DNA from: Candidatus Uhrbacteria bacterium RIFCSPLOWO2_01_FULL_47_17
GTDB taxonomy: Bacteria > Patescibacteriota > Patescibacteriia > UBA9934 > GWF2-40-263
Length of the DNA stretch: 64,000 bases
Assembly (NCBI GenBank): GCA_001791305.1
Contig: MGEI01000004.1
Coordinates: forward strand, 129,804-193,803
Direction: 5' to 3'
The notes below the pieces were generated by a model that worked only from the letters and a program-made list of their open reading frames with translations, did not search any database and had not been told where the DNA came from. The translations under genes were made by a program, and so were the position numbers. The number at the start of each line of letters is the position of its first letter. Within the stretch, counting starts at the first letter, position 1. Below, piece after piece: positions 12,924 through 63,009 of this stretch.

Positions 12924-12950
12924 AAAACCGCTCGTGTGAGCGGTTTTTTT
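12924..12950. terminator. bidirectional terminator (serves dus on - strand)
   Basis: aaaaccgctc-gtgtg-agcggtttttt hairpin flanked by A/T runs. Confidence 0.6.
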
Positions 12951-14016
12951 ACTTTGTCAGTTTCATACGTTCACCCGCATTTGGATGCGCGGCGTCTCTG
13001 TGTGCGATCGCGTCTTTCATGTCTGGGTCGAGGCGCATCTCTTCGAGAATGGTTTCGACTTCCTCTCGAGAAGGCGCGGTGTGCAATCGTTCTTTGTATT
13101 TTTTTGCGCCATCTAACCCTTTCAAATACCACGTAAGATGTTTGCGAAATGTTGTCACGGCTTTCTCGCCGTACTGTTCGATGTGTAATCCTAAGTGAAA
13201 ACGAATCGTGTCCACGCGTTCTTCGATCGAAATCACTTTTGGCGATTTGCCTATGAGCATTTCTTCGATCTGTGCAAAAATCCACGGATTGCCGAGAGCT
13301 CCGCGTGCGATCAGAATTCCGTCGCACTTAGTGTGCTCGAGCGCTTTCATGGCGAGTGGCGCTGTGAACATGTCGCCGTTTGCGAGAATCGGAATCGACA
13401 CGGTCTCTTTGAGCTTGCGAATCATTTCCCAATCCGATTCTCCCGAGTATCCCTGCATGCGCGTTCGGCCATGGACAGTGAGAAGATCGGCACCGGCTTC
13501 TTCGAGAGCCTTCGCAAAGGCAAAGCACTCTGTCGGATCACCCCAGCCGAGTCTAATCTTTACTGAGATGGGTTTCGAGGTAACAGCCTTCATGGCTTTG
13601 ACGATTGCGGCTGCGCGTTCCGGTTCCTTCATGAGTGATGCACCATTGAAATTACAAACAAGTTTGTAAACCGGACAACCCATGTTGATGTCGAATCCCT
13701 CGGGATTATGCTCGCGATCGATGATTCTCGTGGCCTCGGCCATCACGTCCGGATCACTTCCGAAGATTTGCTGCACAAGCGGACGCTCATCCGGATGAAT
13801 CTCCGTCATGTCGAGCGTCTTGTTATTTCCGCGAACAACCGCTTCTGCAGAGACCATTTCGCGAAACATCACAAAATTTGCGATGCGCGTTTCTACGTCC
13901 GCACCAGATTTACTCATGACATATTTTACGGTACGACAAAACGCCGAGTCGGTCATGTCGGCCATCGGTGAAAGCGCAATGATTGGGCGTGGAAGGTTTT
14001 TCCAGTTTAATTTCAT
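12949..14016 (-). CDS. dus: tRNA-dihydrouridine synthase (DusB-like)
   Basis: TIM-barrel Dus motifs ALSPMADMTDSAFCR, NMGCP, KIRLGWGDPTECF; ATG at 14016 (MKLNWKNLPRP); the upstream in-frame extension that covers a repeat is rejected. Confidence 0.85.
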   Translation of the reverse strand: MKLNWKNLPRPIIALSPMADMTDSAFCRTVKYVMSKSGADVETRIANFVMFREMVSAEAVVRGNNKTLDMTEIHPDERPLVQQIFGSDPDVMAEATRIIDREHNPEGFDINMGCPVYKLVCNFNGASLMKEPERAAAIVKAMKAVTSKPISVKIRLGWGDPTECFAFAKALEEAGADLLTVHGRTRMQGYSGESDWEMIRKLKETVSIPILANGDMFTAPLAMKALEHTKCDGILIARGALGNPWIFAQIEEMLIGKSPKVISIEERVDTIRFHLGLHIEQYGEKAVTTFRKHLTWYLKGLDGAKKYKERLHTAPSREEVETILEEMRLDPDMKDAIAHRDAAHPNAGERMKLTK

Positions 14017-14027
14017 ATGTTGTGTTT

Positions 14028-14052
14028 GTAGGGGTGCCCCTTGTGGGTATCC
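14028..14052 (-). repeat. 25-nt near-palindromic repeat, copy 1 (inverted orientation): rc = GGATACCCACAAGGGGCACCCCTAC
   Basis: Read directly; inverted partner of copy at 14138-14162; third copy at 31370-31394. Confidence 0.85.
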
Positions 14053-14137
14053 ATACGATCGGATATGAAAGATATCCCAAAATTGTTGGATGCACAAGGG
14101 ATGCATACCATGTTACACTATCCGCATCGTAAACAAT

Positions 14138-14162
14138 GGGTACCCACCAGGGGTACCCCTAC
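14138..14162 (+). repeat. 25-nt near-palindromic repeat, copy 2: GGGTACCCACCAGGGGTACCCCTAC (two GGTACC cores)
   Basis: Ends 4 nt before the ATG of the MFS-like gene at 14167. Confidence 0.85.
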
Positions 14163-14166
14163 AGAT

Positions 14167-14781
14167 ATGTCAAAATTTTCCCACTTTCGCGAATACTTCC
14201 TCTTGAACATGAATGTCGTTGTTCGGTTCATGATTCTCTCTGATGTGATTTGGATGGGAGCCCTCGGGTTTTTGGGCCCCATTTTTTCTTTGTTTATTGT
14301 GGACTACATCGAAGGAGGAGACGCGCGCGTAGCTGGGTTTGCTGCAACCATTTATCTTTTGACCAAAAGTATTTTTCAAATTCCATTTGCGTCCATCATC
14401 GATAAAATCCGAGGGGAGAAAGATGATTTTTGGATTATGCTGATTGGTTCCATGATTTCGGCGTTGATTCCGCTTTCATATTTGTTTATTCATACGCCCA
14501 TGCAATTGTACATCGTCCAGTTCTTTTATGGACTCATGGTTGCCGCAACGTTCCCATCATTTATGGCGGTCATCTCTCGCCATATGGATAAGAACAAAGA
14601 GTGCAGCGAATGGGGAATCTATTTTACGCTTACAGATTTTAGTTCTGCCATTGCTGCAACCATTGGGGGAGTGATGGTGGCCACTTCTGGATTTCATCCG
14701 CTCATTATTGTGACCGTGATCGTGAGTCTTCTTGGAACATTTTTCCTCTATCCACTTCGCCCGTACATGCGGTTGAAATAA
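14167..14781 (+). CDS. MFS-like 6-TM membrane protein (half-transporter), paralog 1
   Basis: 6 predicted TM helices; about 55% identical to the adjacent 14786..15424 product (shared IYLLTKSIFQIPFASIIDK, LYIVQFF, SEWGIYFTLTD). Confidence 0.55.
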   Translation: MSKFSHFREYFLLNMNVVVRFMILSDVIWMGALGFLGPIFSLFIVDYIEGGDARVAGFAATIYLLTKSIFQIPFASIIDKIRGEKDDFWIMLIGSMISALIPLSYLFIHTPMQLYIVQFFYGLMVAATFPSFMAVISRHMDKNKECSEWGIYFTLTDFSSAIAATIGGVMVATSGFHPLIIVTVIVSLLGTFFLYPLRPYMRLK

Positions 14782-14785
14782 TTTT

Positions 14786-15424
14786 ATGAAAAAGCGTGCA
14801 CTTCCAATCCGGCATTATTTTTTACAGGAAATGAACCCGATTGTTCGTTGTCTTGTGATATCCGATATCGTCTGGCGCGGGAGTGTTGGATTTCTTGGGC
14901 CGATCTTTGCGTTGTTTATTGCGGGATTTATTGAGGGAGGCTCGGCAGAAGTTGTGGGGGTCGCGATGTCCATTTATTTATTCACAAAAAGTCTTTTTCA
15001 AATTCCGTTTTCAACGATCATCGACAAGATGAAAGGTGAGTTTGTGGATTTTTGGTTTATGTTTATCGGAACGATTGTTGGTGCTCTGTTGCCGCTTGCG
15101 TATTTGTTTATTCATACGCCCATGCAGCTTTATGTTGTTCAATTTTTTGCCGGTGTGTTTGCTGCTGCGGCATTTCCGTCGTTCATGGGATTATTCACAA
15201 AACATATTGATAAACAAAAAGAGGGAAGCGAATGGGGGATTTATTACACCCTGACGGATTTGTGTGCGGCTGCAACGGCTGTTATGGGTGGAACAATGGC
15301 CGTCATGTTCGGCTTCCGGACGTTGATCGTCGTCGTAGTTGTTGTGGGTGTCGCCGCATCTCTTTTTCTGTTGCCGATCCGCCTCTCTATTCGCCGTACA
15401 TCGGCAAAAAATAGGGGTCTTTAG
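14786..15424 (+). CDS. MFS-like 6-TM membrane protein (half-transporter), paralog 2
   Basis: Tandem paralog of the upstream gene. Confidence 0.55.
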   Translation: MKKRALPIRHYFLQEMNPIVRCLVISDIVWRGSVGFLGPIFALFIAGFIEGGSAEVVGVAMSIYLFTKSLFQIPFSTIIDKMKGEFVDFWFMFIGTIVGALLPLAYLFIHTPMQLYVVQFFAGVFAAAAFPSFMGLFTKHIDKQKEGSEWGIYYTLTDLCAAATAVMGGTMAVMFGFRTLIVVVVVVGVAASLFLLPIRLSIRRTSAKNRGL

Positions 15425-31275: not shown

Positions 31276-31289
31276 GCCGTCCCAAACTC

Positions 31290-31331
31290 AAAACCACCCA
31301 TAGCCTCTGGCGACGGGTGGTCTTTTCTTTA
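31290..31331 (+). terminator. intrinsic terminator
   Basis: accaccc-atagcctctggcgac-gggtggt hairpin + T-run. Confidence 0.55.
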
Positions 31332-31766
31332 TCCCCATAATCCTTTTTTTGGTTCGTCTTTCTTTCCATGGGTACCCACAAGGGGCACCCCTACATTCGT
31401 ATTCAACTCCGTCATCTTCCAGTGATTCACCCAGGCCACAATATATTTCATTTCTTGCTCCACAAGCGGACCTTCATATTCGCCTCCGTGCGCGTGTGTC
31501 CCTTCATAACTTCCCGCTTTTTGATCTAAGTGCAGATTCACTTGGAGTCCGCCATCTTTATCTTCCACATACGCGTGATATCGCGGAAAGTCCCCGCCGG
31601 ATACGCGTTTTATAAACGCGGTTTGGCCAGAGAATTTGTTTTGTTCCCCATACCCAAGTTTGCGCAACAAGTTACGCGCATTATCCGTAAGTGGACCCGG
31701 AATAAATGTTTTCATACAGCCCCAGCGTAGCGCATTTTTCGAAATAAAAAAAGCGACTGTTACCAA
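31329..31766 (-). CDS. hypothetical protein (145 aa)
   Basis: ORF start overlaps the upstream ICMT-like gene stop by 7 nt (possible coupling); contains HAYVEDKDGGLQVNLHLDQK; C-terminal codons are built from repeat copy 3. Confidence 0.4.
   Translation of the reverse strand: MVTVAFFISKNALRWGCMKTFIPGPLTDNARNLLRKLGYGEQNKFSGQTAFIKRVSGGDFPRYHAYVEDKDGGLQVNLHLDQKAGSYEGTHAHGGEYEGPLVEQEMKYIVAWVNHWKMTELNTNVGVPLVGTHGKKDEPKKGLWG
31370..31394 (+). repeat. 25-nt near-palindromic repeat, copy 3: GGGTACCCACAAGGGGCACCCCTAC
   Basis: Identical to rc of copy 1 except one base; lies within the 3' end of the minus-strand ORF 31329..31766. Confidence 0.85.
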
Positions 31767-62679: not shown

Positions 62680-63009
62680 ATGAAGTCTCTCAGCCTCTTC
62701 ATTCTTGCTGCCACGTTGTTTATCGGCCTCACGTTTGCCGGTAATGCTTTTTTTGGCATGGATCATGGAATGGAGATGGGCAGTGTTGAGTGTGTGAATC
62801 ATTGTTTGAGTACGTTTGTCTTTCCGGCTGTATCCTCGAGTGCACTTCCATTAATTCTGTTTGTTGCATTCTCGATTGCGCTCGCATTACGATCTATGGG
62901 CGGGTCACGACCCGCCTCTACGAATCCGATGCAGTACAATCGTCTAACCGAACCGATCGGTTTATTGTTGCGTTCCAGAAAATTATCACCCGTCATGATT
63001 CGGGATTAA
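62680..63009 (+). CDS. small membrane protein with HGMEMGSVECVNHC putative metal-binding motif
   Basis: ATG 62680; signal/TM; the 3' coding region contains the second copy of the GGGCGGGTCACGACCCGCC palindrome. Confidence 0.4.
   Translation: MKSLSLFILAATLFIGLTFAGNAFFGMDHGMEMGSVECVNHCLSTFVFPAVSSSALPLILFVAFSIALALRSMGGSRPASTNPMQYNRLTEPIGLLLRSRKLSPVMIRD
62898..62916. repeat. GC-rich palindrome GGGCGGGTCACGACCCGCC, copy 2
   Basis: 24 of 26 nt identical to the copy at 38896-38917 including flanks (..GGGCGGGTCACGACCCGCCyCTAC..). Confidence 0.8.

Follow-up and report, generated by a model that had tools for sequence, protein, structure and literature searches.

GTAG-headed hairpin repeats in a Candidatus Uhrbacteria genome are very probably REP elements of the type that accompanies subclass 2.4 RAYT transposases

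In a 64,000-nt stretch of a Candidatus Uhrbacteria contig (the window, whose positions are used throughout for the repeat copies except where a coordinate is prefixed L, the mark of a comparison sequence), two inverted copies of a 25-nt sequence stand in the divergent intergenic region between dus and an MFS gene, and a third copy lies inside an unrelated gene, which raises the question of what kind of element occupies both settings. An initial annotation offered a miniature inverted-repeat element, a transcription-factor operator built of dimeric sites, or a cluster of restriction or methylation targets. The evidence presented here makes it very probable that the repeats are GTAG-tagged repetitive extragenic palindromic (REP) elements of the type that accompanies subclass 2.4 (Bertels group 4) of the REP-associated tyrosine transposases (RAYT, also TnpA_REP), and that they were inserted recently, and singly, in this genome. 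The window is at least 99.95% identical to contigs of Rifle groundwater metagenome-assembled genomes (GCA_001791205.1 and others), and its proteins have Candidatus Uhrbacteria homologs, so the genome belongs to the candidate phyla radiation (CPR)/Patescibacteria.

Scanning the window with the pattern GGRTACCCACMAGGGGYACCCCTAC gives exact matches at 14028-14052 (minus strand), 14138-14162 (plus) and 31370-31394 (plus), which bears out the three copies that had been reported, while none of 100 dinucleotide shuffles of the window contains any match. No further copy is present in the window at up to three mismatches, nor at up to seven substitutions. When the copies are aligned with 40-nt flanks, the conserved block measures about 28 nt (ATGGRTACCCACMAGGGGYACCCCTACA), and the sequence beyond it is unrelated among the copies. 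The opposite strand of each copy reads 5'-GTAG-GGGTGCCC-CTTGT-GGGTACCC-3' and so consists of a GTAG head with an 8-bp GC-rich stem directly behind it and a loop of 5 nt. What had been described as two palindromic half-sites per copy are the two arms of this one hairpin, and in most members of the wider family described below neither arm is a palindrome in itself or contains GGTACC. Two positions vary among the three copies, and both are paired on the GTAG strand, as G.U or A-U, whereas on the other strand they are A.C mismatches. Folding energies follow the same asymmetry, at -15.4 to -16.7 kcal/mol for the GTAG strand against -7.9 to -15.4 kcal/mol for the complement in copies of this variant (variant A). 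Rfam models give no match at the gathering score in the window and none at E<=1 in 13900-14300.

A general scan of the window for GTAG-headed GC hairpins revealed a second variant in two copies, B1 and B2, which differ from each other by one mismatch and whose pattern likewise finds no match in 100 shuffles. A fourth copy of variant A lies about 5 kb to the left of window position 1 in the same genome (L164:4585-4609), bringing the count to six copies of two variants in about 82 kb, made up of the window and some 18 kb on its two sides. In all five window copies and in this sixth copy the GTAG is followed at once by an 8-bp stem, and the copies match the layout of GTAG-tagged REPs.

The surroundings of the copies fall into two kinds. 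A1 ends 11 nt ahead of the dus ATG (14016, minus strand), its complementary (CTAC) strand being the one expected in the dus mRNA; A2 ends 4 nt ahead of the ATG (14167) of the first of two half-size MFS genes, exactly as the initial annotation had it; and B1 lies 6 nt upstream of the ATG (38927) of a gene for a sigma factor of the sigma-70/ECF type (38927-39541, plus strand, with Sigma70_r2/r4 domains). The other three copies lie within reading frames. The host gene of A3 encodes a conserved CPR protein of 128 or 145 aa, depending on the start (31329-31715/31766, minus strand); the copy had been placed, correctly, within the 3' end of an unrelated open reading frame (ORF), yet it is not merely embedded there, being an in-frame insert (...NVGVPLVGTHG...) in a variable C-terminal linker that is followed by the conserved C-terminus KKGLWG. 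B2 is in frame in an unannotated small ORF (62587/62680-63009, plus strand) that is annotated as a gene on a sister contig. The copy outside the window is in frame in a murG-like gene (...NVESS-VGVPLVGTH-GNGNYF...), in a stretch that aligns only loosely to solved MurG structures. With its conserved flanking T and A the unit is 27 nt long, which is nine codons and so fits insertions that survive in frame.

The hairpin belongs to a family that is spread over many phyla. Scanning one genome per species with GTAGGGGNNCCCCTNGTGGGNNNCC gives matches in at least 120 genome stretches, where our own estimate of the chance expectation is about 4, and the matches include Acidobacteriota, Chloroflexota, Cyanobacteria, Planctomycetota, Bacteroidota, several proteobacterial classes, Peregrinibacteria and others. 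Flanking these matches are sister copies that keep the GTAG, the GGG...CCC foot and the CTTGT or CTCGT loop and have inner stems that are different but complementary (GGGCAGGC/GCCTGCCC and GGGCAACC/GGTTGCCC are examples); frequently they are arranged as close inverted heterodimers or in arrays that repeat every 39 nt. Because 39 sister copies were anchored on head, foot and loop only, they are unselected for pairing, and all five inner pairs are formed in 36 of them, compared with about 10 expected with shuffled partners. Among 45 distinct sequences the paired share of cells is 96.7%, where shuffles give 81.9% (0/500 reaching the observed value), with changes on both sides at five of the eight stem pairs and a drop to 27-59% when the register is slid, and the GGG...CCC foot is invariant, in 45/45 for two of its pairs and 44/45 for the third. 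On the GTAG strand G:T outnumbers A:C by 14 to 4. Pairing that is kept while the sequence changes freely, together with this strand asymmetry, argues that the conserved object is a folded single strand and not a duplex protein-binding site.

The exact variant of the window, with T...AT flanks, occurs in 18 metagenome stretches (L125-L142) with GC contents from 32 to 60%. Its 25-mer, GTAGGGGTGCCCCTTGTGGGTACCC, is identical across all of them and forms a GC-rich island even in very AT-rich genomes. The family motif is also found in 12 IMG/VR viral contigs (L152-L163); a phage vector was considered for the family and set aside, the motif being present in only these 12 viral contigs.

The family is also physically linked to transposase genes. 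In L006, L040 and L023 the repeats are accompanied or surrounded by Y1_Tnp ORFs with the subclass 2.4 signatures (MPNH[FIL]HGII, WQ and YIxNNP), and in L023 and L040 a repeat stands in frame directly after the HUH motif, encoding VGAPLVGA. The transposase in L132 (32% GC) carries the very variant of the window in frame (...NVGVPLVGTH...), with a second copy 30 nt beyond its stop codon; its homologs are named 'REP element-mobilizing transposase RayT' and include proteins of Candidatus Peregrinibacteria and Candidatus Portnoybacteria. The RAYTs of these two CPR lineages, L150 (Peregrinibacteria) and L151 (Portnoybacteria), have family REPs in frame as well (VGAPLVGA/RAGTRPAPT and VGAGLVPA), and in L023, L040, L132, L150 and L151 alike the in-frame REP follows the HuH motif. 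NCBIfam REP_Tyr_transpos (NF047646) is the top match for all these transposases, L006 scoring above the curated cutoff and the others having their match split by the insert.

In other phyla the family also forms arrays of copies in one orientation. L006:3700-5310 contains seven such copies within longer repeats of about 150-200 bp around the RAYT gene, and L023:1799-2274 and L027:32-134 contain tandem runs with a 39-nt period (a 25-nt REP and a 14-nt spacer) that lie partly within a RAYT reading frame. In L150:6403-9200 (GCA_016220165.1) the RAYT gene stands between an HsdM-like type I restriction-modification methylase and a weak HsdS-like ORF, inside a restriction-modification cluster.

Comparison with relatives shows that individual sites are filled in some genomes and empty in others. 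Four syntenic relatives (L143-L146, up to 21 kb each, with Dus 86-91% identical) contain no GTAG hairpin: A1 is absent from all four, and A2 is absent from L144 and L146, both of which have the MFS genes. This is the indel polymorphism between relatives that the initial annotation had proposed to look for. The 85 bp between A1 and A2 aligns with REP-free intergenic DNA of L143 and L145 (...ATAGTGTAACAT...CATCCCTTGTGCATC...; over 14053-14137 the alignment reads ...ATAGTGTAACAT.GT.T.CA.CCCTTG.GCATC...TTTT.GGGATA), so the spacer is native promoter DNA and the inverted pair represents two separate insertions that bracket a divergent promoter region. At the DNA level the site orthologous to A3 is filled in L147, with one C-G pair changed to T-A in compensated fashion, and is empty in L149. 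In a sister strain (L165) the 62.9-kb copy B2 differs by a C-to-T substitution after which the affected bases still pair, as G.T, on the GTAG strand. No target-site duplication flanks the copies, and the duplication that had been suggested as a check at the outer ends of the inverted pair is not found (none at 14027/14163).

Two observations at these orthologous sites stand apart. In L148 (2497-2521) the A3 site holds a different stem, GGGCAGGT/GCCCGCCC where the window has GGGTGCCC/GGGTACCC, between nearly identical flanking codons; this swap speaks for replacement or conversion of the REP, or for a site that was hit more than once, and against gradual drift. The MFS genes downstream of A2 encode mutually similar proteins of 204 and 212 aa, each matching about the first half (11-176) of the 347-position Pfam model MFS_1, the two half-size genes taking the place that a single full-length transporter would have. 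Both occur in L144 and L146, whereas L143 and L145 lack precisely this pair, and there the next gene, for a 127-aa thioredoxin-like protein, abuts the same promoter region.

Table 1. Repeat copies in the window and the features of the dus/MFS region (for repeat copies the strand is that of the GTAG head)
Feature	Position	Strand	Description
REP copy A1	14028..14052	+	GTAG-GGGTGCCC-CTTGT-GGGTATCC
REP copy A2	14138..14162	-	GTAG-GGGTACCC-CTGGT-GGGTACCC, perfect 8-bp stem
REP copy A3	31370..31394	- (gene sense strand)	in frame, encodes VGVPLVGTH
REP copy B1, second variant	38897..38920	-	GTAG-GGGCGGGT-CGTG-ACCCGCCC
REP copy B2, second variant	62898..62921	-	GTAGAGGCGGGTCGTGACCCGCCC, 1 mismatch to B1; in frame, encodes ...GGSRPAST...
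dus (tRNA dihydrouridine synthase), downstream of A1	12949..14016	-	Pfam Dus, 3.3e-76
two tandem half-size MFS genes, the first downstream of A2	14167-14781, 14786-15424	+	Pfam MFS_1 for both
native divergent intergenic (promoter) DNA, dus/MFS, outside any mobile unit	14053..14137	.	aligns with REP-free relatives

If the TnpA_REP/REP pairs studied in vitro are a guide, the GTAG strand would fold as single-stranded DNA into a unit of about 25-28 nt, comprising a 5' GTAG 'guide', an 8-bp hairpin with three G-C pairs at its foot and a 5-nt CTNGT loop (a 4-nt CGTG loop in the second variant). REPs are palindromes of 20-50 nt preceded by GTAG; TnpA_REP recognises them as folded single-stranded DNA, in the REP strand and not its complement, and cleaves at CT or CA beside the hairpin, with GTAG acting like the guide sequence of IS200/IS605 (PMC8266576). 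In the present genome a single-copy HUH/Tyr transposase encoded elsewhere would recognise the folded strand, cleave beside it and transfer the unit to new single-stranded sites, making no target-site duplication. On this reading units of this kind have recently entered between promoter and start codon at dus, at the MFS gene and at the sigma-factor gene, and in frame, as nine codons, in tolerant loops of the 145-aa protein, of MurG and of the small ORF; the inverted pair at 14028-14162 is two independent insertions, one on each side of the native divergent promoter. That RAYT-mediated single-strand cleavage and transfer takes place in this organism is suggested by homologous systems and by the physical linkage in other genomes, and the family may still be active here.

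Some points weigh against this assignment. The window and the sequence on its two sides contain no RAYT gene, and the copy number beyond them is only extrapolated from six copies. Classically, REPs are dispersed in tens to hundreds of copies per genome, and the cognate RAYT gene typically has REPs on its flanks (a REPtron). Half of the copies (3/6) are intragenic, which is atypical of classical REPs, though documented for subclass 2.4. The flanks of filled and empty sites have diverged to the point of obscuring insertion boundaries and cleavage sites. Neither the exact CTTGT-loop consensus nor GGG-N5-CTNGT-N5-CCC is among the REPs in the part of the PMC6006769 supplement that was covered, and the CTTGT-loop consensus is likewise absent from the portions covered of the PMC3733652 supplement and from full-text sequence strings.

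Could the pair at 14028-14162 instead be a single 135-bp unit, a miniature inverted-repeat transposable element with 25-bp terminal inverted repeats or a REPIN, that was inserted as a block? The two copies are indeed inverted with their GTAG heads outward, as in REP dimers and REPINs, close inverted heterodimers of the family are common in other phyla, and dimers are frequent among GTAG REPs (PMC3733652). The homology of the 85-bp spacer to the intergenic DNA of REP-free relatives runs counter to this, as do the lack of a second copy of the 135-bp block, the fact that the other four copies are singletons and the missing target-site duplication, and we regard the single unit as very unlikely. 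A miniature mobile element was therefore a sound suggestion in the broad sense, given the copies missing at orthologous sites, while its specific form, with 25-bp terminal repeats, is not borne out. The same low standing applies to a double-stranded operator whose dimeric half-sites would let a transcription factor control dus, the MFS gene and others. It would account for the three copies placed 4-11 nt upstream of start codons, and the window variant does contain two short palindromes, but across the family it is the pairing and not the sequence that is conserved: the inner stem changes freely, and the G:T bias is strand-asymmetric. Moreover, three of the six copies are inside ORFs, in frame in unrelated ones, close relatives have these promoters without the element, and the element is physically tied to RAYT genes, so that an operator is hard to credit. 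Least credible of all is a cluster of KpnI-type GGTACC targets under restriction-modification pressure, for which the one or two GGTACC sites of variant A could speak; GGTACC occurs 9 times in the window against about 13 expected from composition, which is no depletion, and it is lacking in most family members (GGGCACCC/GGGTGCCC, GGGCAGGC/GCCTGCCC) and in variant B, leaving this proposal with next to no probability.

Other candidate roles were tried and rejected. A small peptide gene starting at the ATG of 'ATGGGTACC...' does not hold up, as the three downstream frames differ, by eye, in length and content. For an intrinsic terminator, a loose pattern is matched only by the antisense strand of A2, and the copies are 5' of genes or inside ORFs. 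A promoter borne by the REP was dismissed because there is no sigma-70-like site: the CTAC+N junction hexamers TACAAA, TACAGA and TACAAC do not end in the conserved T, and for two of them the distance to the ATG is too short. A Shine-Dalgarno role for AGGGG does not fit its distance of 13-20 nt from the ATG, nor a genome in which Shine-Dalgarno-like motifs are at background level.

The placement of the intergenic copies poses a question of its own. All three (A1, A2 and B1) are 4-11 nt upstream of genuine start codons, with the GTAG strand always the template strand, and the chance of such placement is roughly 7 x 10^-5 under uniform intergenic insertion, a figure to be read in the knowledge that the distance window was picked after seeing the data. 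The genome is compact, with 88.5% coding sequence and a median gap of 48 nt. Shine-Dalgarno-like motifs precede 5 of the 47 long ORFs of the window, against a background of 11%, and strong TATAAT-like -10 boxes that end 5-13 nt before the ATG are about seven-fold enriched (9/47 compared with 2.7%), with a peak at 8-10 nt, which indicates many leaderless-type promoters and suggests that genes of this Uhrbacteria-like genome are expressed in a largely leaderless way. In the relatives the boxes before dus and the MFS gene read TTGACA-N17-TATTCT-N9-ATG, TATACT-N11-ATG and TACACT-N8-ATG, and the REPs of the window thus stand after the -10 box and ahead of the start codon. This placement could be due to selection, given how compact the genome is, to a single-strand transposase that favours melted promoter DNA, or to the co-option of 5' hairpins.

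Co-option would mean that the copies before dus, the MFS gene and the sigma gene, while of REP origin, now serve as 5'-leader hairpins that tune translation or mRNA stability, a proposal that is compatible with the REP assignment. Besides the shared position and orientation of the three copies, it draws on A2, which forms a perfect hairpin in the mRNA-sense strand (-15.4 kcal/mol) ending 8 nt short of the AUG, on the effects that REPs of other bacteria have on mRNA fate (PMC8266576), and on the setting, since a GC-hairpin leader inserted where Shine-Dalgarno motifs are at background and leaderless-type promoters are enriched should matter for expression. The same genes, however, work without the element in relatives, and no bias of the family's head side toward ORF starts is seen in other phyla (20 on the head side against 18 on the tail side). 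In A1, furthermore, the GTAG strand folds at -16.7 kcal/mol (z -3.2), whereas the mRNA-sense strand contains two A.C mismatches and its fold is no more stable than those of shuffles (-7.9 kcal/mol, z -0.7), which places the conserved structure on the GTAG strand, the strand of non-transcribed sense. We consider co-option unlikely, if worth keeping in view. A wider proposal, to which we give slightly less credence still, is that insertion is strand-specific, with GTAG on the template, and favours the melted stretch from the -10 box to the start, which is single-stranded DNA exposed in open promoter complexes. Leaderless dus, MFS and ECF-type sigma genes would thereby become leadered, with a GC hairpin before the AUG, whether by transcription-bubble-targeted Y1 transposition, by exaptation of REPs as 5' regulators where Shine-Dalgarno-led initiation is lacking, or by both.

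Returning to the assignment to the subclass 2.4 type, the window contains REPs whose class has been described before; their occurrence in a CPR genome is new, and they have moved there recently. Nearly all work on REP/RAYT systems has dealt with Proteobacteria, and among the papers searched none links such systems to CPR/Patescibacteria. CPR genomes generally measure roughly 1 Mb. If these elements were recently mobile in so tightly packed an Uhrbacteria genome, then ultra-small genomes of the symbiont type tolerate a selfish or domesticated REP class, and in such a compact genome REPs may be able to survive only in protein loops and in the handful of bases that separate promoter and start. 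Head, foot and loop are identical in more than 10 phyla and the inner stem covaries freely, which suggests that the subclass 2.4 RAYT reads head, foot and loop. Should the proximity to start codons prove general, single-strand transposition would be linked with promoter melting; if not, the copies call for routine annotation as REPs.

The window has two further features of note. A tRNA-Thr(UGU) gene (43625-43978, plus strand) has its anticodon loop interrupted by a 279-nt group I intron (Rfam RF00028, 73 bits); it was missed by the default tRNA scan and found by ARAGORN with intron search on, and an HNH endonuclease ORF (44044-44607, plus strand) follows about 65 nt downstream. Near A3, between a DUF218 gene (end 31275) and the convergent gene for the 145-aa protein (end 31329), an ordinary hairpin at 31283-31325 is flanked on either side by T-runs (AAAACCACCC...GGGTGGTCTTTTC) and resembles a bidirectional terminator, a simple terminator scan having given no call there.

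Among known systems, one comparator is the Rickettsia palindromic element, which measures about 100-150 bp. It resembles the present repeats in being a small palindromic repeat tolerated in frame in protein genes (PMC3733652), and differs in being lineage-restricted and in having no GTAG head or known RAYT partner. The subterminal hairpins of IS200/IS605 share the use by a Y1 transposase, on single-stranded DNA, of a hairpin with a 5' guide tetranucleotide, but these ends flank the transposase gene and travel with it, whereas the units in the window are dispersed singly and have no coding capacity. The E. coli REP/BIME elements and the Pseudomonas REPINs, which belong to RAYT groups 2 and 3, are likewise non-autonomous units with a GTAG guide and a hairpin that an HUH/Tyr enzyme reads as folded single-stranded DNA, and they too leave no target duplication. 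The E. coli REPs are longer and have a bulge where the present hairpin is short and perfect or nearly so, and REPINs replicate as inverted doublets with a conserved spacer, unlike the single units here, whose lone inverted pair has a native spacer.

There is also a likeness to the GTAG super-family (Di Nocera, De Gregorio & Rocco 2013), which consists of GTAG-tagged short stem-loops. Their stems measure 6-9 bp and show G:U-type pairing on one strand, their inverted dimers differ in spacer, and now and then a copy lies within a gene, at a terminus, in a loop or in another tolerant position (PMC3733652). Members of the super-family are mostly high in copy number and located downstream of genes, between convergent or co-directional ORFs, while in the window the intergenic copies are just upstream of starts and half of all copies are intragenic. 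The closest comparator is the set of REPs of TnpA_REP subclass 2.4, an enzyme group with the motifs NH[IFV]H, WQ and YIxNNP and a patchwork distribution over 'Cyanobacteria, Bacteroidetes and various phyla' (Quentin et al. 2018, PMC6006769). The host here is a CPR/Patescibacteria genome, a group that the Quentin survey does not mention, and no transposase gene was found within the roughly 82 kb considered. What the two have in common is the 5' GT[AG]G at the hairpin foot, the three consecutive G-C pairs of the stem foot, a 25-nt architecture of 4+8+5+8 that is listed for some subclass 2.4 REPs in the part of the supplement that was covered, and the patchy spread over phyla, and they share as well the insertion in frame in the transposase and other genes, REPs standing in frame within tnpA_REP between HuH and Y being unique to subclass 2.4 (PMC6006769).

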